A stretch of DNA of 64,000 nucleotides from a virus. The stretch covers positions 3,658 to 67,657 of the IMG/VR virus record IMGVR_UViG_3300032374_000001; one strand, 5' to 3'. The notes under the pieces were generated by a model, which saw only the letters and a program-made list of their open reading frames with translations, ran no database searches and was not told the DNA's origin. The position numbers were made by a program, and so were the translations under genes. Shown piece after piece: positions 3,651-62,729 of this stretch (its first letter is position 1; each line of letters begins with the position of its first letter).

Positions 3651-3673
3651 CGTCGGGGGATGGCCGAACGCGC

Positions 3674-3755: not shown

Positions 3756-4070
3756 ATGCATCGCTACATCCTGATCGACCGGCACAGCGGCTACATCTTC
3801 GGCGACACGGCCGACTTCGCCGCTGGCCGCGAGTTCGACACGCCCGCCGAGGCTGCTGCAATCCTACACGAAACACTGCTCGACGGGGCGGTTGCCTTCG
3901 AGGCGTGCGGTGATCGAGACGAGCACGCGGTCTACGACGTGTATCAGGCCGACATCAACGGCAGCGACGCCGTGGGAGTCGTGCATGACGGCCAGGATCA
4001 GGAAACCATTGACGCCGTCGTGGCTGCCTGTGAGCACGTCAGCACGCTGCGCCGCGCCCAGGCCGCGTGA
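3756..4070 (+). CDS. Hypothetical acidic protein (moron gene 1)
   Basis: AGGAGG RBS, behind own promoter. Confidence 0.75.
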   Translation: MHRYILIDRHSGYIFGDTADFAAGREFDTPAEAAAILHETLLDGAVAFEACGDRDEHAVYDVYQADINGSDAVGVVHDGQDQETIDAVVAACEHVSTLRRAQAA

Positions 4071-4411
4071 TGCTTGCCAGCGAATTCCGCGACCTCGGCA
4101 TGCGCGCCTGGGGCCATGGCTACCAAGCGCGCGTCGCCCGCGGGCTGGCAGTGGCCGAACGAACCGTGCGGCGGTGGGCGTCGGGCGAGACGGTGATCTC
4201 GGACGGGGCTGCTGCCGAGATCGTGGCCCTGGCCGAGCGCGCCGGGACGGCCCGAACCTTCGCAGCCGAGTGCGTGTCTCGCTATGCCGAAGAGGCGGAT
4301 GCGGCCGGACTTGATCGTGCCGAGGCCATGGCGGCGCTCGTCGAGTATGCCGGCGTGCGGGCCGAGATCGCGGCATGCGCAGCGCGGCGGACTCGGCGAA
4401 GCACCCGGTGA
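4067..4411 (+). CDS. XRE-like HTH protein (moron gene 2)
   Basis: QARVARGLAVAERTVRRWASG; GTGA overlap with upstream gene. Confidence 0.75.
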   Translation: MMLASEFRDLGMRAWGHGYQARVARGLAVAERTVRRWASGETVISDGAAAEIVALAERAGTARTFAAECVSRYAEEADAAGLDRAEAMAALVEYAGVRAEIAACAARRTRRSTR

Positions 4412-4686
4412 CAATCCCCAACCCCACCGTCGCCGACTGGATCGCATCCGGGGAGACGACGATCGAGGTCTTTTGCGCTCCATCGGATGGCCCTGGATGC
4501 GGGCACCATGCCGTGGTGGATGTGACGACTCTGGACCCGAGGATGACCCGCTCCCGGCTGTGTCGGCAGGCAAGGTGCGCGAAGTGCGGGAAGCGGGGTG
4601 CTACGGTTCAGCGGGACATGGGCCGGCACTACGAGCGGCTCGCGGCGACCGGGTGGGGGTGTGATCCGTTCAAGGCGGGCGGTTAG
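4408..4686 (+). CDS. Zinc-ribbon small protein
   Basis: FC......CGH...RCAKCG; GTGA overlap. Confidence 0.65.
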   Translation: MTIPNPTVADWIASGETTIEVFCAPSDGPGCGHHAVVDVTTLDPRMTRSRLCRQARCAKCGKRGATVQRDMGRHYERLAATGWGCDPFKAGG

Positions 4687-13800: not shown

Positions 13801-16710
13801 GTCGCTGCCAACCTCCGTCTCGCCGTTGACCCGGAACAGCTCCGACGTGTTGGTCGCGAACGGGAGCGCCGGGTTCCACTCGTAGTAGGTGGCGTCCCTC
13901 TGCCAGCCGTTGCGCCGATTGACCGTGTCGATCATCGGGCTGCGGACATCGGCCCGGCGGAAGCTCCCGCCGCGCAGGTCCATGACCACAGGCCCGTCGA
14001 TGTCGATGTCGAAGACGGCGCGACCCGTCGTCTTGGTCGCCTCGGCGGCAGAGCCGGGCACCGCATCGACCTTGAGGTCGGGCACGCCGCGCACGCGGAT
14101 CTCCGGCCCCTTGCCGACGAGCTGCTTCGGGTTGGTGTAGAGGATGCGGGTCCACGGCGTTCCCGGAACGCTCTGGTCCTCGTAAGTAATCGTGATGTCG
14201 ATATCGACATCGTCGGTGCCGAGGATGTCGCGCGAGTTCACGTTGCCGAAGTTTTTGAGATACTTCAGCAGATAGACCTTGCGGTTGCCCATCGGGCCCT
14301 TGACGCGCACGAGACCCTTGAGTGTGATCTTGCTCGGCATCTCGATCGGCTTGAGCGTGTCGAAGGTTCGCGCCGGACCGAGCAGATCCAGGATGGCGAA
14401 CTCGCGGTCCTCGGGCGACCCGCGCGTGTCGATGTCGAGCACGAAATCGGTGAGCGAGAGGACGCCGCCGTACTGCATGTAATCGGTGCGGGCGCGAAAC
14501 AGCGCCTGGCCGGGATGGCAGATGCTGTAGTGGCCGCCGACGGCCTGAATATCCCGACCGGCAAAGTGCAGACAGAATGGATTGGCCGAGTTGCTGACGG
14601 AAACATCAATGCCGATCGCCTTGAGGCCGTACTGCGCGTGCCCGCCGATCGCGTCGGCGTAGTTACCGCCGAACAGTCGGATGTTCTTAGCCCGCTGGCC
14701 GTCGTAAGAGCGCCGCCCACCGCCACCGGTTGGACTGTAAATATCGATGTCGGCGGACAAGCCGACCTGAATGGCATAGTTGGTGTTGCCGACGCCCAGA
14801 TCCGTCATGGCGGGCGTGTGCAGCGTCGCGCCGGTGCAGCCGGTCAGGTTGAGGCCGACCAGCGTCTGCGCTGCGCTGGACCCCTTGACCTCAATCCCGC
14901 GCAGTTCGGTGTTGCAGCGGGTCAACTGGATGACCGAACCGCGCGGCGTCACCGCGGGACCGTACAGCACAACCCGCGGCGGGCTGATCGACAGGCGGTT
15001 GCGGATGGTCTGAGCCTTGAACGTGCCTTGCGTCCAGGCCACCAGCGGTGCCGTCAGGGTGTGGGTGCCGGAGCCCGCCGTGGTCGCGGCAATCGCGCCA
15101 CCACCGACCGAGAGCGCGACATTGAAGCCGGCCATGCCCGCGTTGACGACGAAGTAGAACCGATCGCGCTGGAACGGCGCAGGCAGTTCGCCCGTGGTCT
15201 CCAACGTGAACGGGTCGCCGTTGCGCAGCGGGTGGCCGTTGCGGGCGAAGTAGGCCGGAGCCGCCTGTGAGATCGAGACCGGGAAGACGCGGCCCGTCGT
15301 GGTGGTGTCCCACTTGGCGATGAGCGGGGGGCTGATGTGGCCGTCCTCGTCATCGACCACGAACACGTCGCCCATGCGGGTGCCGCCGGTCGAGATGTAG
15401 ATGGTGAGCGTGCCCGCCCCTGCGGAACTGAAGCTGATCGGCGCGCCGCCGGGCGAGGTCGCGATCTGCAAGCTGTCGAGGGTGACGTTGACCGCGTAGT
15501 AGTAGGTGCCGGCCGTGAGCGGCGCGGGCAGGGTCGGAGTGACGTTCGGATCGGCGCTGTCGGCCGAGACCGTGATCAGACGGTTCAGGGGCGCGCCGTG
15601 GGTGGCGCGCATGATGCCGTCGGATGCGATCGTCACCGACAGGGCGTTGGCGGACCCGTCCTGCGCCTCAAGGTTATAGGCTGCGGTGCCTGCGGTCGTG
15701 GGCGTGATCGGTGCCCCGCCCAGCGTCGCAGAGAGCTTGAGCGTCAGTTGCGTGCGCGCGACGACGTAGTAGGTCGGCCCCGGCGCATCGACCGTTCCAG
15801 AGGCGAAGGGTGCGGGCGGGTTGGCGCCGACACGGAACTTGATCGGCGTGCCGTTCGGATAGCCGTCGGCCGCACGCGCGATGGTGGCGGGATTGTTGCC
15901 CGTGGCGACCGCGGTGAAGGTCGAGCCGTTGCGCTCCAGAAGGGCTTGGTCGATCGTGTCGAGGGTGATGCACTGGCCCTTGCGCGACGGCGAGACGCCG
16001 CGCAGGCGGGATGCGCCCTGAACCGCACCAGCCCAGCGCTGGACCTCATCCAAGGGGACGATCTCGACATCATCGGGATCGGGCGCGATGGTGAGCGCGT
16101 AGCCCGGCGCCGTGTCGTAGGTGAGTGCTGCACCGACGGGCACACCGCCAGACACCGACCACACCGCCACGCCATCGAGGCCGACGTCGGTCGCCGGGCC
16201 TGCGACGCCGTTGAAATAGAGCACGACGCGATGGCCAGGGATCAGGTTGGCCAGCGTGACGGTCGCCCGATCCGAACTGACGATGGCGCCGCTTGCCGAA
16301 ATGGGCGCCGAGCGCGCACCTTCCGCAGGCGTGTAGATCGTGCCCTCGTAATCGCCCTCATCGTAGATGCCGACCTCGCCGAGGCAGAGGTAGCCGGCGC
16401 CATTCGGGCCGCGCGGTAGGCGGGGACGAATGCCGTTGTTGTGGCAGTAGAGCAGGTAGGCGTTGAGGGGTGCCGTCTGATCGGTCGCGCCGGACCGCAG
16501 CAAGCCATTGTCATCAAGGCGGGCATTCGCCACCACGCCGCGCGCGACGGGGAGAAGGGCGTCACCCAACACGTCGGAAACAGAGCGATCCTGCGTTGCG
16601 CCCTTGGCCGTGACGACCATCTCGGTCGCATCGCCCGCCAGACGGTCGCTGGGGCCGATTTCCTGATAGCCGCCGCCGGACGCAGAACGCAGGGCCTTGA
16701 CAGACGCCAT
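10861..16710 (-). CDS. Tail fibre/tailspike, 1949 aa: repeat modules, beta-helix-like region, SGNH hydrolase, C-terminal peptidase S74-type chaperone
   Basis: IGDSIS...RAIGG...SFGMN...NHP (SGNH); TSDAREK...ARLHVG...RYGFRYEEL (S74); position after baseplate. Confidence 0.9.
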   Translation of the reverse strand: MASVKALRSASGGGYQEIGPSDRLAGDATEMVVTAKGATQDRSVSDVLGDALLPVARGVVANARLDDNGLLRSGATDQTAPLNAYLLYCHNNGIRPRLPRGPNGAGYLCLGEVGIYDEGDYEGTIYTPAEGARSAPISASGAIVSSDRATVTLANLIPGHRVVLYFNGVAGPATDVGLDGVAVWSVSGGVPVGAALTYDTAPGYALTIAPDPDDVEIVPLDEVQRWAGAVQGASRLRGVSPSRKGQCITLDTIDQALLERNGSTFTAVATGNNPATIARAADGYPNGTPIKFRVGANPPAPFASGTVDAPGPTYYVVARTQLTLKLSATLGGAPITPTTAGTAAYNLEAQDGSANALSVTIASDGIMRATHGAPLNRLITVSADSADPNVTPTLPAPLTAGTYYYAVNVTLDSLQIATSPGGAPISFSSAGAGTLTIYISTGGTRMGDVFVVDDEDGHISPPLIAKWDTTTTGRVFPVSISQAAPAYFARNGHPLRNGDPFTLETTGELPAPFQRDRFYFVVNAGMAGFNVALSVGGGAIAATTAGSGTHTLTAPLVAWTQGTFKAQTIRNRLSISPPRVVLYGPAVTPRGSVIQLTRCNTELRGIEVKGSSAAQTLVGLNLTGCTGATLHTPAMTDLGVGNTNYAIQVGLSADIDIYSPTGGGGRRSYDGQRAKNIRLFGGNYADAIGGHAQYGLKAIGIDVSVSNSANPFCLHFAGRDIQAVGGHYSICHPGQALFRARTDYMQYGGVLSLTDFVLDIDTRGSPEDREFAILDLLGPARTFDTLKPIEMPSKITLKGLVRVKGPMGNRKVYLLKYLKNFGNVNSRDILGTDDVDIDITITYEDQSVPGTPWTRILYTNPKQLVGKGPEIRVRGVPDLKVDAVPGSAAEATKTTGRAVFDIDIDGPVVMDLRGGSFRRADVRSPMIDTVNRRNGWQRDATYYEWNPALPFATNTSELFRVNGETEVGSDGVTRPTRIILSQDKLRAVITTPANARFSGLVLQFPQTADVGRPATFSTGATPLLNVSFDPMGLPITGSPPTTLLPYSEVAFELSIDRDLGLVWRYVQSSAVAGKADSSLGNGQLPYDFPTIADASAAGIPAGQRVVRVAGATVPGIGAASYVESAATTAGPGRFRSSGSTARWWEIVNAGSLSLEQLGALPGSSPAILAGNLAAVQAAALLTKVVRLDSPITVGATTDLGSYMDLTVVGRGKIDGLYRKRVVPDFAVSAAPQIAGDLSPLEHCPTSCRTLAAREVLIGDSISTYQANTFGRSCMLATVLERELRAQARASGRSVAFFDRAIGGAGWGSINGTIQSTPTRIIEWAGTTARAWLAYVKDLQPTRVFISFGMNPGTNISAILAAVTEIRSWRFGMGADAYTTDIVLLTNLVPRPYVGPGNPVDGTANSMAALELRDQAAGLIRSYAKWLRLGILDINRMCDRAVFGFDPTEGLMERVLTKTTITNGAAGTRQAYGHSVRWVLDPTKLATNGSTPIALSTGPGSGDKIEIVATTTPNVYNIVQSSGDGSDVLTIDIANGITITPPTDQTFDLIFERNGNYGVLYILGKTFEASYGETKPNLWSSVIVSRGGLYTPTITCAAAGAIDVIGFDYLSPTIVRPTLSVTDLFNDGVDQTYGGSPINHPGNRVEGHIYAPIIRAARLYDGDAFRLTGPRVLSYLDGAGVTRTWTFNDAGFTVGAGRLRGSDGLYLDAINPAPRITQGGSGTISITSGQATDTGYLEYRGGGLLANLSGGFQGGGTISHSLDNVWSFGTAAFRATQVFAASGTINTSDAREKLDRAGRDLADARVSPLTNAEIAWACALGDEIGIYTWKASYAEKGADARLHVGMTVQRAIALAAEHGIDNPMAYGFICLDRWDAVEPEEAVFEEVEDTDADGNSIIGEDGKPILRTKMVRPAIPGHPAGERYGFRYEELTLFIWAGERAAARKSRKAA

Positions 16711-31341: not shown

Positions 31342-32301
31342 CTAGATCGCGTCGAGGTAGCGGAAGGCGCCGGGGCGGCGGACATCGACGCCGCCGATGC
31401 GGAAGGCGCCCGGCACGTCGAAGCGCCACGGGCCTGTCTGCCACGCCGGGAAGAACCGGAACGGCATCGGCATCCACAGCTTCACGACGGACGGGTCTTT
31501 GCGGTAGGCGACCATGCGGGCCGTACCGCCGGCACCGGCCGTCTCAAGGCCGCGCACGCCGATGATCTCCAGCGGCTGGCCGGTCTCGATGGTGTAGATG
31601 TTGTTGCGCCGGATCCATTCGAGGACCGTGGTCGAGTTGACCTGATCGATGCGGCGGTAGGAGAGCGCGAGCATCTGGTCGTAGGGGAGGAGCAGGGTGT
31701 CTGCCATCTCCACCTGCGAGGTGCCGTTGTAGATGCCGATGAGCTGGGTGTTCACGTCCAGCAGCACCTGATCGGCGGTCTTGTTCACCCAGAGGGTCGA
31801 GTTGGTCTGACCGTTCAGGTTGCCCGTCGCCGCCGCGGAGCCGGTGGTGACGTTGGGGTTGTTGAGCAGGCCGGTGTAGCCCTTCGGCGTGTCGCCGAAG
31901 AGCGCGACCTGATCGATGAACTCCTCCGACGCCCGACGCGCCGCATCGGCCTTCTCGGGAGGCAGGTTGATGTTGAGGAGCTGCGCCTTGCCGATCTCCT
32001 CCAGATCGTAGCCGTAGCCGATGCCAGCCATCGAGACGGTGGTCTCGAACTGCCGCTTGAGCACGTCGGCCTTCGGCACGTCGTTGGCCGCGCCGCTCAC
32101 CCACTTGGCCTGGCCGACCTGATCCATGGAGAAGTAGGTGACGGACGGAACCCACTCGGGCGCATTGCGCTCGATCGGCACGAGCCGAGGGTAGCGGATC
32201 GCGGCGTACTGGGTGCGGTAGACGCCGGGTTCGATGTAAGCCTGCTGGCTGACCAGAAAGGCCAGCGCACGCGGCGCGTCGATCGTGTACTGGCCCTGCA
32301 T
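31342..32301 (-). CDS. Major capsid protein (DUF2184/encapsulin-like HK97 fold)
   Basis: GIGYGY...EI..A; A.FGD...G.TGLLNNP; PGAFR.GGV.VRRP. Confidence 0.93.
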   Translation of the reverse strand: MQGQYTIDAPRALAFLVSQQAYIEPGVYRTQYAAIRYPRLVPIERNAPEWVPSVTYFSMDQVGQAKWVSGAANDVPKADVLKRQFETTVSMAGIGYGYDLEEIGKAQLLNINLPPEKADAARRASEEFIDQVALFGDTPKGYTGLLNNPNVTTGSAAATGNLNGQTNSTLWVNKTADQVLLDVNTQLIGIYNGTSQVEMADTLLLPYDQMLALSYRRIDQVNSTTVLEWIRRNNIYTIETGQPLEIIGVRGLETAGAGGTARMVAYRKDPSVVKLWMPMPFRFFPAWQTGPWRFDVPGAFRIGGVDVRRPGAFRYLDAI

Positions 32302-32321
32302 GTCAGGCGCTCCTAAAAGGT

Positions 32322-32771
32322 TCAGATGAAGGCGACGCGCAGCCGCGCGAGGCCGTTGTTGGCCGCGCTGCTGTCGAAGATCGCGTTGGGGACGGCGGTA
32401 TTGCCGGACGAGGTAGCGGACCACGCGCCGGCCGACGTGAGGTAGGCAGGCGCGCCCGCGGTGACGGCGCCGGACACGACCACCCAGATCACGCCGCGCG
32501 TCATGATGGTGACCGTGTCGCCCTGCGCGTAGGCGTCGGTCTGCGCCGCGGTCGGGCGGACGTTGTGATCCACCTCGGTCACGCCGCGGAGGATGGAGCC
32601 CGTCGCGGCCACGGACTGGTCGGTCGCGCCCTGATAGGCGGGCTTGCCGAAGCCGATGCCGGTGTTGGTCTCGATGGTGCGGGAGATCGTGTTACGGACC
32701 TCCATGTTGGCCGGCATGCCCTCGAAACCGGGGGCGATGTTGCCGCCATAGACGGACTGAACTGCGGGCAT
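32322..32771 (-). CDS. Capsid decoration/cement protein
   Basis: GFEGMPAN; GIGFG.P; V.IMTRG.IWV; between scaffold and MCP. Confidence 0.85.
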   Translation of the reverse strand: MPAVQSVYGGNIAPGFEGMPANMEVRNTISRTIETNTGIGFGKPAYQGATDQSVAATGSILRGVTEVDHNVRPTAAQTDAYAQGDTVTIMTRGVIWVVVSGAVTAGAPAYLTSAGAWSATSSGNTAVPNAIFDSSAANNGLARLRVAFI

Positions 32772-34000
32772 CAGGCATTCCCCTGCGGCTGGTGGGTCGG
32801 ACGCTTCCACGCGCCGTCGTAGGAGCGGCACATCTCGTCGTAGGCGGCGGTCGAGGCGTCGCCGATCACCTGACCGGGCGCGGGCACGGACGCGCTGATG
32901 GAGCGGCCGAGATGGTCGAGCGTCGGGGCCTTGGAGGCGTAGGAGAGGAAAGCGCCGTTGACAGCCTCATCGGACAGCGCCTTGGCCGCATCGCCGAGAT
33001 GCGCCGTCACGGCCTCGCGGCGGATGTCCGCCTCGGTCTTGCCGTCAAAGGTGATCTTCCCCTTGCCGACGACCTTCTCAGCGTCCGCCATCACGGCGAC
33101 GCGCGCCTTGACGGCGTCGTCGAGCTTCTGCGGGGTGAGCTTGGCGTCGTCGAGCTGCTTCTTCAGGGCAGCGATCTCGCCGTCCTTGGTCTCGCCGGCC
33201 TTCTTGGCATCGGCGATCTCGGCGTCCTTGGCCTGCATAGCAGTCGCATGCGCCGCGGTGCTGGTGTTCAGGTCGGCGGTGAGCTTGAGGTTGTCGGCCG
33301 TGAGGCGACCCATTTCCGTCTGAAGGCCCTTGACCGCGACAATCGCGGCGTCGGACATCTCGACGGCGTTGTCGCCGATCATGTGCGTCTTCATGGGGGT
33401 ATCCCTGTTCGGGGGCGGGGTGCGCTGCGTGTCGTCAGCGGGGGTGCGCGCGTCCCCGATGAAGGCGGACCAGCTGTCGCCGATCCGGCATTGCGGGCCG
33501 GCACGTCCGGCGCTGACGATCGCGATGTGATCCGCGACGATGCCGACCTGTCGGGCCTGGAATTTTGTGCCGTCGGGGGCGACGCCATCGCCCCATTCGA
33601 GTTCGCAGCGGTAGCCCGCGGAAAGCTGGCACTTGCCGGCCTGCACAGCTGCGACGGCGTCCTCGTCCTTCACGCGCAGGCCGAGCCGCAGATACTCGCC
33701 ATCGCGCAAAACCTCGGCGCCGGTCGTGCCGCGGGCGACCTGTCGCCAGTTCTTGGCGTTCACGCCGCCAGGCGGATGATCGACCGTCACCGGGATGAGA
33801 CGGAAGCTCTCCAGCGAGTCCTTGGAGAACACCTCGCGCTCATCGCGGTAGACCGTAACGATCGGCATTTCCGGCTTACCGACCTCGGAGCCGAGGTAGG
33901 TTTGACAGCCTGTTCTCACCGTCTTGGCGAAGGCCTCTAGGTAGCCGCCATCGCCCACCCGGACATCGCCGAGCGCGACGGCATCGGTCGCGTAGAACAT
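32771..34000 (-). CDS. Prohead protease/scaffold (DUF2213-like)
   Basis: RTG.Q.Y..SE; PVT.DHP; LSAGY; HIAIV..GRAG..CRIGD; coiled-coil C-terminus. Confidence 0.92.
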   Translation of the reverse strand: MFYATDAVALGDVRVGDGGYLEAFAKTVRTGCQTYLGSEVGKPEMPIVTVYRDEREVFSKDSLESFRLIPVTVDHPPGGVNAKNWRQVARGTTGAEVLRDGEYLRLGLRVKDEDAVAAVQAGKCQLSAGYRCELEWGDGVAPDGTKFQARQVGIVADHIAIVSAGRAGPQCRIGDSWSAFIGDARTPADDTQRTPPPNRDTPMKTHMIGDNAVEMSDAAIVAVKGLQTEMGRLTADNLKLTADLNTSTAAHATAMQAKDAEIADAKKAGETKDGEIAALKKQLDDAKLTPQKLDDAVKARVAVMADAEKVVGKGKITFDGKTEADIRREAVTAHLGDAAKALSDEAVNGAFLSYASKAPTLDHLGRSISASVPAPGQVIGDASTAAYDEMCRSYDGAWKRPTHQPQGNA

Positions 34001-35550: not shown

Positions 35551-36378
35551 CTACAGCGAGAACGCCGTCTGCATGGCGGTTCCGGTCGAGCCGAGCTTGC
35601 CGTCCCGCACCGCGAACTGTGCCTCGTCCCAGTAACCGTGCCAGAGCACGTCGGGAGCGGAGACCCAGTCGGCCATCGCCTTCACGCAGGGCTCGAAACC
35701 AGGCCGGCACACGCCCCATTCGGTGAAGGCGCGCGGCTTTCCTCGCGAGGCGGCAAAGCCCTTGTGCCAGCGCAGGCCGAACGGGCGCTCCAGCATGTGG
35801 GCGAAATTCTCGGCCGCGCCTGCGGGCAAGCCGTCGTCCGGATTGAAGTAGCAATCGAGGCCGATCACATCGACCACCTCATCACCTGGGTAGGTGAGAT
35901 CGGGCGGCGAGTTCTGGAGGCCGACGTTCGGGCACCACTCGAAGCGGAAGCGCGCCGAGACCGAGCGGAACGCCTTCACGAAGCAGACGAACGCAGCGAT
36001 GTACGTCGCCTCTCGGCCCTTTGACGCCCACGGCTGCCAGTTGCCGTTCATCTCCCACCCAGGGCGGATGTAGACAACGCTGTCGCGCGGGCGGGCGACT
36101 GCGATGTCCTTGGCGACCTTCACGTAATGGGCATCGTGCTTGCCGCTCGCCGCCTCTTCCAGCGTGGCACCCCACGACGGGATCAACGGCACGGACCAGT
36201 GCTGACGCCGCGGCAGGGGCGCCATGACGCCCACGAGCCAGCCGGGGCACCCGTCGAAGTCGGCCCAACCGTTGCGGCCCGTGTGCAGCATAGCGAGATC
36301 GACCGGGCGCCCAATGAACGCCTCGAACGCGGTCACGCGGGCCGGGTCATTTGGGCAGTAGACGCCGAGCATGCTCAT
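35551..36378 (-). CDS. Glycoside hydrolase family 26-like enzyme
   Basis: IRPGWEMNGNW.PW (acid/base Glu), YPGD..VDVIGLD.Y, FTEWG (nucleophile Glu). Confidence 0.9.
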   Translation of the reverse strand: MSMLGVYCPNDPARVTAFEAFIGRPVDLAMLHTGRNGWADFDGCPGWLVGVMAPLPRRQHWSVPLIPSWGATLEEAASGKHDAHYVKVAKDIAVARPRDSVVYIRPGWEMNGNWQPWASKGREATYIAAFVCFVKAFRSVSARFRFEWCPNVGLQNSPPDLTYPGDEVVDVIGLDCYFNPDDGLPAGAAENFAHMLERPFGLRWHKGFAASRGKPRAFTEWGVCRPGFEPCVKAMADWVSAPDVLWHGYWDEAQFAVRDGKLGSTGTAMQTAFSL

Positions 36379-37946
36379 TGCAACAGCCCTTGCAGCACCG
36401 GGGCGGCCTTCTGCCCGCGGAGGAACTGGCCTGCCGTGTTGACGTGCGTGTAGTTGCCGTCGGTATCGACGACGTAGAAGGTGTTGCTGCTGCTCGGGTT
36501 CTGAAGCTGCGGGATCGCGTCGTAGTCGATCAGGCCGTCGTACCCGATGTCCGCCTGCCCAGCCTTCAGAGCGTTGTTGAAGGCGACGCGCTCGGTTTCC
36601 TTGGCCGGCGTGCCCGTAACATCCGTGCGCTGCGCGAGCGTCGCGACGACGATCTTCCCGAACCCCGCAGCGCGCCGCGCCTGCGCGATCGTCTTGATGA
36701 CCGCGTAGGTCGCCGCTCCACTCACTCCGTTGGCGATGTCGTTGCCGCCCACGTCGATCAGGGCGATGTTGTTCGCGCCCGCGAGGACAAGCGGGTCAGC
36801 CTCGGCCGCCGCCTGATCGCGAACGGTGGTCGCCGTGCGGCCGGAGATCGCAATGTTGTAGGCGTCGGGCTCCTTCGACAACAGCCCCATGGCGATGCGG
36901 ATGCCAGACTGGGTCGAGTAGAAACCTGCCGAGAGGTTGTTAGCGCCGCGGCTCTCGGGAAGGCTGGAGCCCATCAGGACGATACGGTTGTTGCGCTTGG
37001 TCGAGCCGACGAGGCCCGACAGCGTGGTCCGAACGGTATCAACTTCGCTATCCGTGGCCGAGCCCGTGAAGACGACGAAGGCGAACCGGTCCCCCGTGAA
37101 AAAGGCGGACGAGTTCGTGTTCGATCCGCCGCCGAGCGCGCCGCCCGTGATTGTCGCCGAGTCTTGCGCTGGGAAGGTGGCGCTCAGATCCTCGCTGAGG
37201 ATGCGCTGCTTCGTCGAGGTCGAGTGGACACCGTAAACCCCGAAGTTGATCCGCGGGGCCGTGGCTGCGCCTGCGGCGCGCGTCGTCGGACCCGAGCCCG
37301 CGGCGGTATACTCAAAAGTCCCGATACCCGCCTGCCCGGTCTGCACCACAAGGTTGACCCGGCCGGCCCCTGCATTGGAGCCGAGGTTGCTGATCGCGTT
37401 CAGACGCAGGCTGGTGTTCGGCGCGACGGCGTCCAAGAACCCGACGTTGGCCTTATTGACCGACAGGGCGGACGGGATTGCGAGGCCCGCCACCTGATTG
37501 GCTGTGTAGGGATAGATCAGGCCCCGGTGCAGAATGACGGGCAGAGATGCGAAGGCAGGCCCGTAGGCTGCCCGCATCGTCGTCAGGATCGGCAGAATGG
37601 ACGGCGCCGTAGCCGACCCAGTCGCGTGCTTGCCGCCGCCGGTCTGGTCATACCACGTGACGACCCGCAGTTCGGAGCCGGTAGCGAAAGTCAAGGCCGC
37701 GGCCATATCGACAAGGCCTGTCGCAGCAGTAAACCCGATGTCCTGTTGCGCGCTGTCACTCGCCCGCTGAACCCGGATGCACGGCCCGGCATAACCCGCG
37801 ATCAAGCGGGACAGGCCGTAGGCGACGAGATAACCACCCGTGACCGCAGGCAGGGTCGGCAGGGGACGGACGGCCGATGCGCCGAGCGTCCAGTTCAGCC
37901 GCAAACGACTTGTAAGCCGCTGCACATTTGAAAGCCTGAGCGCCAT
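36375..37946 (-). CDS. Lectin/LamG-like N-terminal domain plus SGNH/GDSL hydrolase
   Basis: AYGL.RL...YAGP.IRV.R.SD...QDIGF; MGSS, ISG, GGND, TH motifs. Confidence 0.82.
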   Translation of the reverse strand: MALRLSNVQRLTSRLRLNWTLGASAVRPLPTLPAVTGGYLVAYGLSRLIAGYAGPCIRVQRASDSAQQDIGFTAATGLVDMAAALTFATGSELRVVTWYDQTGGGKHATGSATAPSILPILTTMRAAYGPAFASLPVILHRGLIYPYTANQVAGLAIPSALSVNKANVGFLDAVAPNTSLRLNAISNLGSNAGAGRVNLVVQTGQAGIGTFEYTAAGSGPTTRAAGAATAPRINFGVYGVHSTSTKQRILSEDLSATFPAQDSATITGGALGGGSNTNSSAFFTGDRFAFVVFTGSATDSEVDTVRTTLSGLVGSTKRNNRIVLMGSSLPESRGANNLSAGFYSTQSGIRIAMGLLSKEPDAYNIAISGRTATTVRDQAAAEADPLVLAGANNIALIDVGGNDIANGVSGAATYAVIKTIAQARRAAGFGKIVVATLAQRTDVTGTPAKETERVAFNNALKAGQADIGYDGLIDYDAIPQLQNPSSSNTFYVVDTDGNYTHVNTAGQFLRGQKAAPVLQGLLQ

Positions 37947-39761: not shown

Positions 39762-40658
39762 CTACGGGGCGAAGCTCATCAGGGCGTTCTCGACGGCGCG
39801 ACGGCCTTCGACGCGGGCGCGCCTGCGCTCGGACTTGCGAACCGCGGGCTCGTCGAGATCGAGGATAGCCCGCGCTATACATCGACAACGGATCGGTTGA
39901 CCCGGATGTCCGTCGCTCGGAGGGCTATCCCAGCGGTAGACCTGACCTTCCCTGGCGCGGTGCAACGGGCGGACGCGGCGATCCCTCACCGTTGACCAAG
40001 AGTAGCGGTTCACCCCCGCCTGCGTCTGCCTGATCTCATTCAGATTGGCGTTGAACGAGTGGGCCTGATCGACCGCAATCAACTGGGCCCGTTTTTTGCC
40101 GAACCCGCCGATCTCCGTCAGTTTTGCCGCGATCTCTCTTGTTGAGGCGCCGCGTGAAACGAGGTCTGTGATTTCGACCTCAATCTTCTTTGCGACCTCG
40201 TCCGTAACACCCTTGATAAGTGCTACACTTTTGCGCGTCGCCAAGGTGATGGGTGTAGCCACCTGCTCCGAGTTCACCACCGCCTTGAGATCGACGCCGA
40301 TGACCGAATTGACCTGTTCAATCCACTTGGCGTCGTGCCGAGCAGCCTCGCCCTGAAACAGATTGCGCAGCGGGTTCTCTGCGAGCGCGATAGCCTGAGC
40401 GAATGATCCGCGCAGCGCCGAAACGATATCCGATAGGCCGAAGGCGTCTTGCGTCAGCAGCGTGCGATCCGCGCGGGCGCCTTCCATGAGGGCGGGCTTG
40501 GCAGAGTTGGCGACGCTCAGCACGCCCATGAGGATGCGGTAGAGCGCGACTTCGAAAGCGAGACGTGCACCGATGGGCTTAAGTTCGATCCGCCCTCGCT
40601 TGCCAGCGTCACGAGCGGCGGCGGCGAGATCGAAGGCGATGCGAAGCTTGAGGTTCAC
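39762..40658 (-). CDS. Head morphogenesis protein (SPP1 gp7/Mu F family)
   Basis: RAQLIA.DQ...N; Y.WST..D.RVR..H...EG; HPGQ.I.CRC. Confidence 0.92.
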   Translation of the reverse strand: MNLKLRIAFDLAAAARDAGKRGRIELKPIGARLAFEVALYRILMGVLSVANSAKPALMEGARADRTLLTQDAFGLSDIVSALRGSFAQAIALAENPLRNLFQGEAARHDAKWIEQVNSVIGVDLKAVVNSEQVATPITLATRKSVALIKGVTDEVAKKIEVEITDLVSRGASTREIAAKLTEIGGFGKKRAQLIAVDQAHSFNANLNEIRQTQAGVNRYSWSTVRDRRVRPLHRAREGQVYRWDSPPSDGHPGQPIRCRCIARAILDLDEPAVRKSERRRARVEGRRAVENALMSFAP

Positions 40659-42490
40659 TCGGCTGCCGCAGGTAGGGGTTCGTCAATGGGGTCGAACCGC
40701 TCTTCCCCGAGCGCAATCTTGCCCTGGTAGGGCTCGACCGCGCTCAAATCGAAGTCGCCCTCCGCCTTGCCGACCGTGATGTGAGGCGTGAACTCGTCGT
40801 AGTCCCAAGAGCACCCGGCCTCGCGCAGGCTCTCGTGACGCCAGCGGATCGACCAATCCGAGAAGCAGAGCACAATGGCCCCGCCGTCGAACCGCTCCAC
40901 CATGCGAGGCCCACCGCGTGGCACCAGCACCTTCTCCGCATCCGTGCCAACCGCGAACCAATCGACGGGCGTGCGGCTGTAGCAAATTGTGACGTGGAGA
41001 TCGCTGGCAGCGGGGACGTTCGGAATGCCCTGCCCTCTCGCCCATGCGATGATCTCGGCCGCGTTGGTGACGGGGCGCGACACGTAGAGCGAGCGCGGCG
41101 CCGCATCCTGTGCGATGGCCCGGCGGAGCGGGACGACGTTGGTCTCGGTGTCGTCCTCGCCTTCGTCGGGATCGGTCTCGGCGATCTTGCGCAGCTCGCT
41201 GCCAGCCGCGTCGAACTCCTCCATCGCATCGTCGAGTGCGGGGAAGTGCCCATCCTCGACCAGCCGGGAAACGACACCCTTCGACAGGGGCTCTTCGGGC
41301 ACGACACCCGCGTCCGAGATCAGCTTCACGCCCTGCGCGAGGGTATAGAACGTCTTGGCCTTCTGCTCCGGCGTCTCCTGCCAGAGGGAGTTGAACGAGA
41401 AGAACGCCCCGTCCGGGATCGTGATTCCGCCATCCGCGCACAGGATGGCGTCGAGCCGTTCCAGAGCGGGGCGAAAGTCGCTTTCCTGCTTGGCCGAGAT
41501 GGCATCGTAGTAGTTGCGCAGATCGCTTTCGCCGGTCGATTGCAGCCCGGCCGGGGCTTGCCCGAGCAACCGGGTGACCGGGATGTCCGCCGCGCCCGAA
41601 ATCTCCTGCATGGCCCGGATGTGGATATCCGACAGGCCTGCGAAATTGTAGGTGCGCTGCTGGTAGTCCTCTTCGGGCCCGAGCAGTAGCGTGTTGTTGA
41701 TCGACTTCAGCAGGCTTGCAAGGCCGAAGCGGCGAAGAATGCGGGCCTCGCCCTCTTCGGTGCCGATGCCCGCGAGATCGGCCTTGATGACATCGACCTT
41801 AGCCTCGTGCAGCAACGAGGCGATGACGGCAGAGACCGTGCCGGACGTGTTCAGCGTATCCTCGATCGCCGTGAAAATGCTGTCACCCCAGGACTGCGTC
41901 GTCTGCGCGAAGATGGGCGGCAGCGGAACGCCGTCGAACGGGATCACCCGCGAGGCATGGATCTTGACCTCTTGCCCGAGGGCAGACGCCCCGCCGCGGA
42001 CGACAGGGCGATAGACGTAGGTTCGCGGCTGGCCGAACAGCGGCGAGGCGATATCCGCCTCCCACGTGTCGATGTAGAGCCGGGCCCCCACCTCGACGTG
42101 CAGGTAGCTCAGATCGCCCCGACGCATTCTCGTCACGTCGAGCGGTTCGGAGGGCTCGCCCAGGCGCGTGTTCACGCCGACGATGATCGCTGCCGAGCCG
42201 TAGAGCCGTCCCCACCGCTTGCCCGCCGCAACGCGCGAGGCGAGGTTGAAGCGTTTCTCCTGCGCCTCGAACGCCTCGACGAATTTCTCGTCGCCCGTGT
42301 AGGTGCGCCAGCGGCGCGTCATGTCATCGACGGGAATGTCGATGATCTTCCGACCCAGCCAACCCGAGCGATACATCCGCTCGAACTCCTCCGGCGTGTG
42401 AGGCCGGACGTACCATGTGGTGGCGGAGGCCTTGTCCTTCTGCGTCCCAAGGTTGGAGACGAGATTGGCGAGGCCGTCGTTCGTCAGCAT
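40655..42490 (-). CDS. Portal protein (DUF1073 type) fused to C-terminal 2H phosphoesterase (Acb1/T4 gp57B-like)
   Basis: Portal: YR..W...KIIDIP.DDM.R.W, GAADIP..RLLG; C-terminal LHVTICYS and PHITV 2H motifs. Confidence 0.9.
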   Translation of the reverse strand: MLTNDGLANLVSNLGTQKDKASATTWYVRPHTPEEFERMYRSGWLGRKIIDIPVDDMTRRWRTYTGDEKFVEAFEAQEKRFNLASRVAAGKRWGRLYGSAAIIVGVNTRLGEPSEPLDVTRMRRGDLSYLHVEVGARLYIDTWEADIASPLFGQPRTYVYRPVVRGGASALGQEVKIHASRVIPFDGVPLPPIFAQTTQSWGDSIFTAIEDTLNTSGTVSAVIASLLHEAKVDVIKADLAGIGTEEGEARILRRFGLASLLKSINNTLLLGPEEDYQQRTYNFAGLSDIHIRAMQEISGAADIPVTRLLGQAPAGLQSTGESDLRNYYDAISAKQESDFRPALERLDAILCADGGITIPDGAFFSFNSLWQETPEQKAKTFYTLAQGVKLISDAGVVPEEPLSKGVVSRLVEDGHFPALDDAMEEFDAAGSELRKIAETDPDEGEDDTETNVVPLRRAIAQDAAPRSLYVSRPVTNAAEIIAWARGQGIPNVPAASDLHVTICYSRTPVDWFAVGTDAEKVLVPRGGPRMVERFDGGAIVLCFSDWSIRWRHESLREAGCSWDYDEFTPHITVGKAEGDFDLSAVEPYQGKIALGEERFDPIDEPLPAAAE

Positions 42491-42500
42491 CGGCTAGCCT

Positions 42501-42540
42501 GTTCGCCGCTGTTCGCAGCCGTTCGCTGCTGTTCGCCACC
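42501..42540. repeat. Four tandem 10-bp repeats GTTCGCNGCY
   Basis: GTTCGC at 42501, 42511, 42521, 42531. Confidence 0.85.
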
Positions 42541-42624: not shown

Positions 42625-43158
42625 GTGAAGTTCTTAGAGTGCATGATCGCCTACACCCCGCCGGGGTTTGACCATCGCACGGGGACGGGCGGCAAAGTGG
42701 AGGTCGGCCCGTGGCCCGACGAAACTGGGTGGTCGGAGGTCTACTCGAACACGATCGGTGGTTGCTTCTCAGACGTTCACGAATTGCCGTCGCACCAGAT
42801 CGCGGCCCGCGTATTCATCGACTTTGCCACGATCACCGTCCGCGACGGCATTGATCCGCAGGCGGCTCACCAAGCGTTCTTGGCGATTGATGAGTACCGC
42901 AATTCGATCCCGCGCGACATGCCAGGATGCGAAATCCCAAGGCCGTCCGCGCCCTATCCCAACGACACGCCGACCGCTGCGCTCCCTCTATCTGTTCGCG
43001 CCCGGAATGGTCTTCTCAACCCTCGCGAGAACGGCCGGTACGACACGGTCGGTAAAATTAGAAGCGCCTCTCAGTCCGCCCTGCTGCGCTTGCCGAATTT
43101 CGGAAGGAAATCCTTGAAAGAGGTGCGCGATTTGATTGACCCGCCCACCGCCTCGTGA
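42625..43158 (+). CDS. Unknown N-terminal domain plus RNA polymerase alpha-CTD-like domain
   Basis: LSVRARNGL...LLRLPNFGRKSLKEV matches the RpoA CTD signature. Confidence 0.82.
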   Translation: MKFLECMIAYTPPGFDHRTGTGGKVEVGPWPDETGWSEVYSNTIGGCFSDVHELPSHQIAARVFIDFATITVRDGIDPQAAHQAFLAIDEYRNSIPRDMPGCEIPRPSAPYPNDTPTAALPLSVRARNGLLNPRENGRYDTVGKIRSASQSALLRLPNFGRKSLKEVRDLIDPPTAS

Positions 43159-43657: not shown

Positions 43658-44953
43658 TCAGAGGAGGTCCATCATGGAGGGGCCGGACTCCAACATCAGT
43701 TCGCTCAGAGCCCAGACCACGGCATCGACCCGGTCCGGTGAGCCCTCGCCGAGAAACCCGTCGGCCGTCATCGCGACCATCTGATCTTCCAAATGCTCAA
43801 GCCCGTCACCAATGTGGCTGACGCGACCCTGTTCGTAGAGAGCGGCCACCGGCTCGGAACGGACGATCTTGCCGCGCGAGGCAGTGACCATCTTGACGGC
43901 CACGTCTGGCCCGGCCGTTCGGATCACGCTTTCCACCATGGCGCCGCCGAAGTTCTTCTCAGCGACGATGCGGTCGGCTCGGTGATCGCGGTAGGCATCG
44001 ACCGCCCTGCGACCCCATCCAGCGGGCGAAAGCTTGCAGGTCCAATCCTTCAGAACGTAGGCCCGCCCATCGACACCGCGACCGGCGGCAACGATGCCGA
44101 TGCTATCGCCGTTGTCGTCACCGCCTGTGCCCGATGGGTCCACCCCGATCACCACCCGCTGCATCTGCGGGGGGACCTTCACCTCACGGGCCTTGTCGAT
44201 CATCGCCCGCGTCCAGAGGGCGCCAGGCACGTCGTCGAGGATTTCGGCCTCTAGCTCCTGTCGCCCGAGGCGGGTGCCTTCGTAGCGGGTCTTGAGCTTG
44301 GCGAGGAACTGCGCCGGCAGGTTCTCGGCGTTATCGAAGGTCGAACCGCGTGTGACTGCCGTTGTCGGATCGGCCAGGATTTCCCGGATGACCGGGATCG
44401 GACGCGGTGTCGTGGTCACGAACACACGCGGGTCAGCGCCGCGCCGCATCGTGAACTGGAGCATGTCCCAGGTCTCGCGAGCGTAGCGGTACTTGGCTAG
44501 CTCATCGACCCATGCCGTGTCGAACTCGGGGCCTCGGAGCTGATCTGGCTCGGTTCCGTTGTAGCCCAGCGCCACCGCGCCGTTGGGCCAGACCAACCGG
44601 ACGGGCTTGTAGCGGACACTCGGGGCTTCGCTCGGCGGGTGGATCGCGATGAGCCGCGCCACCATCACCTCTTCCAAGTCCTTCTGCGTTTCAGCCAAAA
44701 GCGCGATGCTGCGGGCACCGTCGCGGACTCGTTCACGCACCCACTGAGCGCCAGCTTCCGTCTTCCCGAACCCGCGGCCCGCAAGGGCCAACCACGTCTG
44801 CCAGCTATGGTCTGGCGCGATCTGATTGGGCCGCGCCCAGAACCGCCAGTCCCACAGCAGTTCTTCTGCCTGCGCCTCACTCAGGCTTGCGAGAAGTGCC
44901 TGTCGGTCCTGCGGTTGCAGCGAGGCGACCGAGCTTGCCAGAGAGGAGTTCAC
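43658..44953 (-). CDS. terL: Terminase large subunit
   Basis: Walker A AGRGFGKT, Walker B WVDE, GVDP nuclease motif, SPDRVDA. Confidence 0.96.
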   Translation of the reverse strand: MNSSLASSVASLQPQDRQALLASLSEAQAEELLWDWRFWARPNQIAPDHSWQTWLALAGRGFGKTEAGAQWVRERVRDGARSIALLAETQKDLEEVMVARLIAIHPPSEAPSVRYKPVRLVWPNGAVALGYNGTEPDQLRGPEFDTAWVDELAKYRYARETWDMLQFTMRRGADPRVFVTTTPRPIPVIREILADPTTAVTRGSTFDNAENLPAQFLAKLKTRYEGTRLGRQELEAEILDDVPGALWTRAMIDKAREVKVPPQMQRVVIGVDPSGTGGDDNGDSIGIVAAGRGVDGRAYVLKDWTCKLSPAGWGRRAVDAYRDHRADRIVAEKNFGGAMVESVIRTAGPDVAVKMVTASRGKIVRSEPVAALYEQGRVSHIGDGLEHLEDQMVAMTADGFLGEGSPDRVDAVVWALSELMLESGPSMMDLL

Positions 44954-45344
44954 GAGCGCTCGTCACTTCCGCCTGGATCGGCGCGCCGTCTGGGCCCGAA
45001 AGCTCATGCGAGACCTTATCGCGGAAATCGTCGGGGGCCATGTTGCGAAGCTGAAACACAACGATCTGTGCCGTGCCCGGCCCACCGCCCTTTTCGCCCA
45101 CGCGAGCTGCGCGCTGCTCCCACTTGAAAGCGGCCGCTGCCTTTCCCGCGTTACAAGCTACCGAAAACTCGGGGTGCTGATTGGCCCATTCCTGCAAAGT
45201 GGACCGCGCGACGCCGATTGATCCGGCAAAAGCGGTGAGTGAGTACCCGTCCCGGCAGAACTCCACGACCTGATCGCAATAGGCCGGATCGTACTTGGTC
45301 GGCCGTCCGCCTGCCCCCTTCTTCGGCTCTGTCTCTGAGCCCAT
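44877..45344 (-). CDS. terS: Terminase small subunit
   Basis: GRPTKY N-terminus, HTH (IGVARSTLQEW...HPEF), overlaps terL. Confidence 0.85.
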   Translation of the reverse strand: MGSETEPKKGAGGRPTKYDPAYCDQVVEFCRDGYSLTAFAGSIGVARSTLQEWANQHPEFSVACNAGKAAAAFKWEQRAARVGEKGGGPGTAQIVVFQLRNMAPDDFRDKVSHELSGPDGAPIQAEVTSARELLSGKLGRLAATAGPTGTSRKPE

Positions 45345-61374: not shown

Positions 61375-61854
61375 ATGACCCCCGATCAGGAAGGGACGGG
61401 CGCGGTGCGTCCCGTGCGGCTTCAACTCAGCCGGCGAGCCGGGTTCTCGCTCCAGGCACACAGCCGAGCGGTGAACGGGCTGCCCGCGGTGAAGGTCGAT
61501 CGCACGACTGACTGGGGCAACCCCTACCGTCCCGGCATGATCCTCGCCCACGGGCCGCATGCCGGTGCGGTGGTTCGCGACGTTCGGCACGCCGTCGATC
61601 TATTCGATGAGTGGGCGCGCGCCGCCATAGCCGGCGAGGCGCTGCCCCAGAACGATGGCGGACCAGCTCCGCCGCGGGAGCAAATTGCTCGGAGCCTCGT
61701 CGAGCTGCGGGGCAAGAACCTCGCGTGCTGGTGCGGCTCCGGCCCCTGCCACGCCGACGTGCTCCTGCGCCTCGCGAATGGGCCCGTCTGCGACACCCCC
61801 ACCCCCTCCACCAATGCCCCGAGCGGGGATCAACCTCATGGGGGTGGGCTGTGA
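61375..61854 (+). CDS. DUF4326-like protein
   Basis: VDR.T.WGNPY; LRGKNLACWC...CHADVLL.LAN. Confidence 0.85.
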   Translation: MTPDQEGTGAVRPVRLQLSRRAGFSLQAHSRAVNGLPAVKVDRTTDWGNPYRPGMILAHGPHAGAVVRDVRHAVDLFDEWARAAIAGEALPQNDGGPAPPREQIARSLVELRGKNLACWCGSGPCHADVLLRLANGPVCDTPTPSTNAPSGDQPHGGGL

Positions 61855-62729
61855 GCAACCCGTACCTCATCCAGGGCCCGGCCCTCATCAGCTTCAGCGG
61901 CGGGCGCACGTCCGCCTATATGCTGAAGCACATCCTCGACGCGCATGGCGGCACACTGCCGGCGGATGTGCATGTCGCCTTCGCCAACACTGGCCGGGAG
62001 ATGCCGGAGACGCTCGAATTCGTGCGCGAGTGTTCGGTGCGGTGGGGCGTCCGCATCATCTGGGTTGAGTTCGACCCGAGCGCCCCGAACAAGACGCGCT
62101 TTCCGAGCTACGAGCAGGCCAGCCGCAACGGCGAGCCGTTCGTCGCCGTCATCCGCAGCAGCAAGTCGGGCATGCTGCCGAGCCCGGTCATCCGGTTCTG
62201 TACGACCGAGATGAAGATCCGGCGCTTCAAGGCGCTGATGCACAAAGTGCTGGGCTACGATCGCTGGCACAGCGTCATCGGACTGCGCGCGGACGAGCCT
62301 CGCCGCGTCGCCCGTCAGCACGCGGCAAACGAGAAGGGCAAAGAGCGTTGGGCGACCGGCATGCCGCTGGCTGAGGCCGGCGTAGCGAAGGCGGATGTCG
62401 GCACGTGGTGGGCTGCACAGCCCTTCGACCTACGCCTTCCGACCGTGAACGGCACGACGCCGCTCGGCAACTGCGATCTGTGCTTCCTGAAGAGTCGGGC
62501 GACCATCGAAGGCATCATGCGGGCGCGCCCCGAACTGGCCGAGTGGTGGATCGAGCGCGAGCGCGAAGCCGACGATAGGACCGTGTCCGTCGAAACCCGT
62601 CAGATGAGCGTGCGGCACTTCCGCAAAGATCGCCCCGGCTACGCCGAGCTGCTGGCCGCCGTGCAGAGCCAGACGACGATGCCCTTCGAAGCCGGGGAGG
62701 AGTCCGTTGACTGCGCTTGCACCGACTGA
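61851..62729 (+). CDS. PAPS-reductase-family (PP-loop) protein with Cys motifs
   Basis: ISFSGGRTS, FANTGRE..ETLEF, RFCT.EMK, GLRADE..R, GNCDLCFLK, DCACTD. Confidence 0.88.
   Translation: MSNPYLIQGPALISFSGGRTSAYMLKHILDAHGGTLPADVHVAFANTGREMPETLEFVRECSVRWGVRIIWVEFDPSAPNKTRFPSYEQASRNGEPFVAVIRSSKSGMLPSPVIRFCTTEMKIRRFKALMHKVLGYDRWHSVIGLRADEPRRVARQHAANEKGKERWATGMPLAEAGVAKADVGTWWAAQPFDLRLPTVNGTTPLGNCDLCFLKSRATIEGIMRARPELAEWWIEREREADDRTVSVETRQMSVRHFRKDRPGYAELLAAVQSQTTMPFEAGEESVDCACTD

Follow-up and report, generated by a model that had tools for sequence, protein, structure and literature searches.

A phage portal protein carrying an Acb1-family 2H phosphodiesterase domain: a further member of a catalogued class of portal fusions

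The closest free-standing counterparts of the protein considered here are the Acb1 enzymes of phage T4 (gene 57B) and Erwinia phage FBB1 (structures 7T26/7T27). All ten Acb1 homologues that were assayed, T4 Acb1 and nine that were cloned, cleaved 3'3'-cyclic GMP-AMP (3'3'-cGAMP) and cAAA (Hobbs et al., 2022, PMC9117128). In FBB1 Acb1 the catalytic tetrad consists of H44, T46, H113 and T115, while Y12, W74, F107 and W147 act by stacking, E141 contacts the adenine N6 (Hobbs et al., 2022, PMC9117128), and residues 145-152 form a C-terminal lid (PMC9117128). Fusions of 2H domains to portal and MuF proteins were named in a computational study by Iyer, Burroughs, Anand, de Souza and Aravind (2017, PMC5512222), and Iyer, Burroughs, Anantharaman and Aravind (2022, PMC9503650) later suggested that they are probably packaged and injected against SMODS signalling (CBASS, an antiphage signalling system based on cyclic oligonucleotides), cyclic-mononucleotide signalling and CRISPR signalling. 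Here we analyse such a gene in a 64,000-nucleotide stretch of viral DNA (hereafter the window; positions 3,658 to 67,657 of IMG/VR record IMGVR_UViG_3300032374_000001, a 69.6-kb linear virus contig estimated to be 72% complete). The gene is one uninterrupted open reading frame (ORF) of 611 residues (window 40655..42490, minus strand) encoding a portal protein with a C-terminal Acb1-family domain. As in the cases described by Iyer et al. (2017), a conflict-related enzyme domain sits on the portal, among virion genes of a terminase-portal phage. The architecture and predicted role are exactly those of the 2H-portal and 2H-MuF fusions (PMC5512222, PMC9503650), and nothing essential differs. The fusion is therefore not new, having been catalogued, named and predicted in print in 2017 and 2022, and the present gene is a further member.

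The portal core (clip, stem and wing; residues 1-388, window 41327..42490, minus strand) matches Pfam PF06381 (Phage_portal_3) over residues 36-388 (E 6e-91), the NCBIfam model TIGR01555 (HI1409 family; E 7e-73, 245.9 bits against a cut-off of 196.25) and the PHROGs portal family phrog_146 (E 2e-128). The phrog_146 profile itself spans the C-terminal domain, and it was this that first pointed to the fusion being common. Behind the core come the crown/barrel helices that form the inward-facing end of the portal (residues 389-437, 41180..41326, minus strand; placed from the AlphaFold2 helices and the alignment to 8hds), and then a flexible linker (approximately residues 438-461, 41108..41179, minus strand; sequence ETDPDEGEDDTETNVVPLRRAIAQ), delimited by model confidence and the homologue alignment. 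The linker is acidic in the present copy, the acidic stretch ETDPDEGEDDTETN (approximately residues 438-451) preceding the Acb1 domain. The predicted 2H phosphodiesterase domain itself occupies residues 462-611, with a lid tail at residues 602-611 (40658..41107, minus strand; PF23474, phmmer, Foldseek and VIA). Residues 467-604 score 121.8 bits with Pfam PF23474 (Acb1), for which the cut-off is 27, and cover positions 2-139 of the 144 in the model (E 2.5e-35), far past chance. An initial annotation, made by a model from the sequence, had described a portal fused to an Acb1-like 2H phosphodiesterase that runs on for about 150 residues past an acidic linker and carries two intact H-x-T motifs. 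Each part of that description was borne out: residues 461-611 (codons at window 40658-41110) follow the acidic stretch, LHVTICYS and PHITVG lie at residues 498-505 and 569-574, and PF06381 and PF23474 are joined in one protein with the catalytic tetrad intact. The two-domain layout is not a frameshift artefact, since many homologues of about 600 residues have the identical architecture.

The relationship to Acb1 can be seen directly as well as through profiles. The C-terminal 172 residues match T4 gene 57B in a tblastn search (about 30% identity, E 5e-7), and phmmer aligns the domain with 7t26 (FBB1 Acb1; E 6e-7) with both H-x-T motifs in register. An AlphaFold2 model of the domain, built from 90 homologues, has a mean predicted local distance difference test score (pLDDT) of 91, and its top Protein Data Bank matches in Foldseek are 7t27 and 7t26 (E 1.7e-8), followed by a Burkholderia phage phosphodiesterase (E 5.9e-6, template-modelling score approximately 0.66) and E. 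coli LigT (E 6e-5). Residues 466-603 of the full-length model superpose on 7t26 with Z 16.2 and a root-mean-square deviation of 1.9 Å over 131 of 137 residues (VIA). By sequence and modelled structure alike, the domain is thus assigned to Acb1 proper. It has in common with the T4 and FBB1 enzymes the Pfam family over the full model length, the 2H fold and the HxT/HxT tetrad, as well as the equivalents of Y12, F107 and E141 and a C-terminal tail in the lid position. In contrast to those free-standing proteins, it forms the C-terminal 150 residues of a portal, at approximately 25-30% identity, and its enzymatic role is predicted from sequence. The Burkholderia phage BCSR5 phosphodiesterase (9Q2Y/9Q2G) and other viral 2H phosphodiesterases (Doherty et al., 2025) likewise have a 2H fold with a mobile lid, although the BCSR5 enzyme is free-standing and only 14% identical to the domain here.

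Residue equivalences to FBB1 Acb1 numbering were taken via the alignment with T4 Acb1, and conservation was assessed in 96 full-length homologues with 40-76% identity to the query. H44 and T46 correspond to H499 and T501, both invariant; H113 and T115 correspond to H570 and T572, the histidine invariant and the threonine kept in more than 90%. E141, which contacts the adenine, corresponds to E597 and is likewise present in all 96. Y12 is Y469, kept in 95 of 96, and F107 is F567, a position that is tyrosine in 92 homologues and phenylalanine in four. Fourteen further domain positions are invariant together with H499, T501, H570 and E597. Mean pairwise identity is 0.61 in the enzyme domain, 0.49 in the portal core, 0.36 in the crown and 0.15 in the linker, and by this measure no other part of the protein is as constrained as the predicted enzyme domain. 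Conservation above that of the portal core is strong evidence against the domain being a vestigial appendage. On this comparative evidence, the gene encodes a real, intact and selectively maintained portal-Acb1 fusion.

The full-length AlphaFold2 model (pLDDT 85.7) consists of the portal core, two helices (residues 399-413 and 419-437; pLDDT 85-92), the linker (pLDDT below 50 at residues 440-459) and the Acb1 domain. Residues 8-430 align to residues 12-431 of the portal of phage Pam3 (8hds_A) with Z 27.2 over 410 residues and 32% identity, and comparisons with the portals of E217, Pa193 and T1 gave Z values of 23-25. Profile, fold and position between terminase and head morphogenesis genes all fit the assignment to the PF06381/TIGR01555 portal family. 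In solved portals the crown/barrel helices face the capsid interior; given that the C-terminus comes after these helices, the Acb1 domain must hang inside the capsid. The proposal in the initial annotation that a dodecameric portal would place twelve enzymes at the assembly site, or carry them with the virion, is plausible on this model.

Pam3 offers the closest structural comparison, being the only solved portal with an Acb1-like domain. Its portal gp3 (8HDS; Yang et al., 2023, PMC9942802) belongs to the same family, and Pam3 has the same gene order of small terminase subunit (TerS), large terminase subunit (TerL), portal and minor capsid protein. The 621-residue Pam3 portal bears its Acb1-like domain at residues 462-611 (phmmer, E 2e-29), while the deposited 8hds chain has coordinates for 442 of the 621 residues, the domain not among them. 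The Pam3 domain must therefore be either flexibly tethered and averaged out, or removed. The Pam3 paper (PMC9942802) mentions neither an Acb1-like domain nor portal processing; that the Pam3 portal sequence holds a domain absent from the deposited model is an addition of the present work, as are the differing C-terminal cargoes of near-identical portal cores and the missing lid tryptophan of this copy, both described below. Where the domain is located may be something that the Pam3 data can already show.

We see about an even chance that this protein is a portal bearing a predicted catalytically competent Acb1-family 2H phosphodiesterase, tethered by a flexible linker, that acts late in the producing cell. 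Its assignment as an enzyme has good support, while its deployment is what we infer. The domain would, like T4 and FBB1 Acb1, use acid-base catalysis without a metal to hydrolyse 3'-5' linked cyclic di- and trinucleotide defence signals (CBASS signals as well as cA3 of other systems). Because it would be made in step with head assembly, the protein would reach hundreds to thousands of copies late in infection, both as free portal subunits and as twelve copies inside each still-empty procapsid, which small nucleotides could reach via the open portal channel. CBASS would fire at this same head-assembly stage, through cleavage of CD-NTases (cGAS/DncV-like nucleotidyltransferases) by the prohead protease. 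CBASS has indeed been reported to act late, activated by prohead-protease cleavage of CD-NTases (PMC12991175), and mutations that allow escape from CBASS have been mapped to the prohead protease and capsid (bioRxiv 2023.05.21.541620), in agreement with the earlier statement in the initial annotation that some CBASS systems respond to late or virion proteins. Late abundance together with CBASS firing at assembly suggests that the main job of the domain would be to quench the alarm in the producing cell, with carriage of twelve copies in the finished head as a consequence, exploited or not. The timing is supported by the position of the gene in the late structural module, where its stop overlaps the start of the MuF gene; in T4 and FBB1, on the other hand, the Acb1 gene lies next to early or middle genes.

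Several considerations weigh against late action in the producing cell as set out above. The tail of the present copy, ...FDPIDEPLPAAAE, has no lid tryptophan (W147), though T4 Acb1 and 68 of the 96 relatives have one; moreover, the W74 position is glutamate here and throughout the fused clade. Substrate range or rate may consequently differ from those of T4 Acb1, and sharp substrate differences have been reported among 2H phosphodiesterases despite conserved active sites (Doherty et al., 2025). That work on related 2H enzymes assigns specificity to the core and a modulating effect on activity to the lid, so that the missing lid tryptophan would be a caveat on rate or substrate range and not on catalysis. 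Furthermore, 2H-MuF fusions are reported by Iyer et al.; if all carriers of 2H domains are procapsid-interior proteins, and not just any late protein, selection for packaging would fit better than timing alone. A literature search found no enzymatic or genetic test of any portal-fused Acb1, and Doherty et al. (2025) do not mention the portal. A frameshift was considered as the source of the odd C-terminal tail and ruled out: the tail of the nearest homologue in the lid position reads ...DDDWQSGVAAE, and the AAE ending is common to the present protein and this 76%-identical homologue, which indicates in-frame divergence (a two-residue alignment gap).

One version of events in the producing cell, which we regard as unlikely, makes the tether more than a means of delivery or of economy, by placing the phosphodiesterase where the alarm is raised, so that twelve Acb1 domains per procapsid portal vertex would degrade the signal at its source. 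This would follow if the prohead protease switches on CD-NTases at assembling procapsids (Hobbs and Kranzusch, 2026 preprint), and in that case the 2H domains on MuF (Iyer et al.) would be there because MuF co-localises with what triggers CBASS. A phage that expresses its phosphodiesterase late and sequestered might also escape decoy-nucleotide systems, Panoptes for example, that detect the activity of such enzymes.

The strongest competitor is the view that the domain is cargo (Iyer et al.), packed in the head on the portal, released by proteolysis of the linker at maturation, and ejected with the DNA to destroy defence nucleotides from the start of infection. We consider this possible, if on the improbable side. 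It has been stated in print for 2H-portal and 2H-MuF fusions (PMC5512222, PMC9503650), and it accords with the inward-pointing portal C-terminus, with the presence of 2H domains on another head-interior carrier, MuF (Iyer et al.), and with the location of T4 acb1 beside ipI, the gene of an internal head protein. T4 Alt, IpI and MuF-fused toxins are likewise enzymes placed in the head via a head-interior component (PMC5512222). The difference here is that the carrier is a portal, which stays in the capsid and is not ejected, so that delivery would need proteolytic release. Among the 96 homologues no consensus cleavage motif was seen in the linker, which varies in length and has a mean identity of only 0.15. 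The module does have a DUF2213 protein, labelled a maturation protease by PHROGs, but its role as a protease is putative. Absence of the domain from the mature Pam3 portal model is compatible with cleavage, but flexibility would equally explain its absence from a 12-fold averaged map. Finally, with the CBASS signal made late, twelve molecules per infection would be little enzyme to set against it. We prefer late action in the producing cell over packaged cargo.

Packaging also draws on the observation that the portal C-terminus behaves as a swappable slot for effector domains of kinds that elsewhere have been proposed to be injected. In a maximum-likelihood tree of the portal core (first 440 residues, 70 sequences, quick search), Acb1-less portals nest inside Acb1-bearing ones, requiring at least two changes of state. 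Three near-identical portal cores, with end branches of 0.008-0.035, are followed by different C-termini: nothing in the first, an ADP-ribosyltransferase (PF03496, E 5e-22) in the second, and in the third, an 843-residue form, an extension of about 400 uncharacterised residues with no Pfam match after the portal. In a more distant pair of portals, one has a weak PBECR3 nuclease match (below the Pfam cut-off) and the other an extension of about 130 residues of no known kind. Near-identical cores with different C-terminal cargo indicate that the portal C-terminus is a position of rapid exchange for effector domains, and Iyer et al. describe rapid exchange of effector domains likewise for MuF.

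Activity on RNA appears improbable, whether the domain were a 2',3'-cyclic phosphodiesterase that helps to heal ends left by host anticodon nucleases or a Usb1-like RNase on host RNA. Such activities are classical for the 2H superfamily, and an RNase reading of portal- and MuF-fused 2H domains was raised by Iyer et al. (2017, PMC5512222), who also noted that these 2H versions are not associated with RNA ligases. LigT and plant CPDase structures do appear in the Foldseek search, but Acb1 proper leads LigT clearly (E 1.7e-8 vs 6e-5), and the Pfam models LigT_PEase and 2_5_RNA_ligase2 stay below their cut-offs, whereas Acb1 reaches 121.8 bits. PHROGs labels the free-standing family (phrog_755) 'RNA ligase'; no match to an RNA ligase, Tpt1 or polynucleotide kinase was found among the window ORFs scanned (a partial survey). 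Moreover, the adenine-contacting glutamate and the stacking residue equivalent to Y12 are invariant or nearly so. That the domain is a catalytically irrelevant structural appendage, such as a head-internal spacer or a DNA-contacting plug of 2H descent, is very improbable, for although the lid tryptophan is missing here and in 28 of the 96 relatives and close portal relatives function with no appendage at all, the 96 sequences show little or no variation at any of the four catalytic positions or at several pocket residues, and a domain that outconserves the portal core is not what would be expected of a spacer.

The fusion is widespread. A homologue search with E <1e-10 gave 716 relatives, and the top ones are mostly about 600 residues long with PF06381 and PF23474. 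NCBI and UniRef name many relatives 'anti-CBASS protein Acb1 family protein', in line with the guess in the initial annotation that domain databases may hold such fusions already. Among the named proteins the nearest is that of Methylorubrum extorquens, with 76% identity over the full length. Relatives are encoded by 436 stretches of GTDB species genomes, mostly of Alpha- and Gammaproteobacteria among the 80 that were listed. Rhizobium, Methylobacterium, Pseudomonas, Xanthomonas and Stenotrophomonas are among the genera with relatives. The fusion is also present in cultured phages, among them Pseudomonas phiPSA1, psageB2 and MR15, Rhizobium RHEph04-06, Sinorhizobium HMSP1-Susan, Aminobacter Erebus, Synechococcus Yong-M2-251 and Pam3. 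Close free-standing relatives of the fused domain are rare: a word-based search, limited by length, found seven short proteins, at least one of which is on a 751-base contig and is probably a portal-gene fragment.

Two apparent fusions of Acb1 to a prohead protease, in Edwardsiella phage vB_EpM_ZHS and Roseobacter phage DSS3P8, were rejected as mis-annotated free-standing Acb1-like genes. Both were found by tblastn and carry the GenBank label 'prohead protease'; the ZHS gene (2116-2715 of the retrieved locus) encodes 199 residues and the DSS3P8 gene (3989-4441) 150 residues. The ZHS gene directly precedes the portal genes, which gives the same neighbourhood in unfused form. The closest genomic relative of the present gene, in Methylorubrum suomiense (NZ_BPRE01000013.1), is in two pieces about 19 kb apart, one matching residues 1-333 at 81% identity and the other residues 324-604 at 61%, the latter within a 301-residue open frame with an intact Acb1 match. 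Either the two pieces are remnants of neighbouring prophages, or an insertion has split one portal gene.

In a comparison of low power, SMODS (PF18144) showed no enrichment alongside Acb1: it turned up in 40 of the 401 genomes sampled from the Methylorubrum order and in one of the 19 genomes with an Acb1 match, a small sample made up of 14 genomes with a portal-Acb1 prophage from the locus search and five Acb1-positive genomes of the order sample. In reading these counts, the genome of a lysogen says little of the other hosts of its phage, and PF18144 misses some CD-NTases.

The present gene adds nothing beyond the hundreds of existing database entries. Should it prove active, a portal-borne Acb1 would show by what route temperate phages of soil- and plant-associated Proteobacteria escape immunity based on cyclic oligonucleotides while needing no extra gene for anti-defence, and it would provide a tractable case for the claim made in 2017 by which enzymes joined to proteins of the head interior serve as packaged counter-defence cargo. 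The reported prohead-protease trigger of CBASS makes the timing and place of the enzyme more interesting than they were in 2022.

The gene order in the late structural module, on the minus strand, is TerS-TerL-portal-MuF. TerS (44877..45344, minus strand) and TerL (43658..44953, minus strand; phrog_979, E 1e-42) lie upstream of the portal. The MuF-like minor head protein (39762..40658, minus strand; PF04233 Phage_Mu_F, E 3.8e-21; phrog_324 head morphogenesis, E 6.5e-57) follows directly, its GTG start overlapping the portal stop as GTGA, as seen in the sequence. Farther along are the DUF2213 head scaffold or putative maturation protease (32771..34000, minus strand; phrog_530 'head maturation protease', E 2.4e-87; Pfam DUF2213, E 2.8e-50) and the major head protein (31342..32424, minus strand; phrog_264, E 1.7e-86). 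The Pam3 gene at the equivalent module position to the DUF2213 gene (gp5), matched by position and not by alignment, is annotated as head scaffold. Genes for a DUF3383 protein, a baseplate hub of the E217 type and a tape-measure-type protein are found farther downstream.

Four copies of GCGAACRG at an exact spacing of 10 bp lie at window 42499-42537, 5-40 nt upstream of the portal ATG and between the portal gene and a divergent ORF. Over the rest of the window the motif is not enriched, with 12 matches against 11.9 expected, and the array could be a binding array for a regulator or an element of the 5' untranslated region. Between TerL and portal, on the opposite strand, is an ORF of 177 residues (42625-43158, plus strand) whose C-terminus matches the C-terminal domain of the RNA polymerase alpha subunit (PF03118, E 8.9e-9), with no match in PHROGs; it may be a moron that hijacks transcription. 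Two carbohydrate-active-looking genes (35551-37946, minus strand) stand within the head module, between MuF and the scaffold/protease gene. One encodes a 523-residue protein with an N-terminal match to the Pfam arabinofuranosidase B catalytic family and a C-terminal GDSL/SGNH hydrolase, and its neighbour a 275-residue protein with a GH26-like match; the inside of a head module is an unusual location for depolymerase-type genes. Beyond the baseplate genes, an ORF of 1949 residues (10861-16710, minus strand) matched no Pfam family at E 0.001; presumably it encodes a large virion protein such as a tail fibre. Elsewhere in the window, a 372-residue ORF (61611-62729, plus strand) has a domain of the 3'-phosphoadenosine-5'-phosphosulfate (PAPS) reductase type (PF01507, E 2.5e-6).

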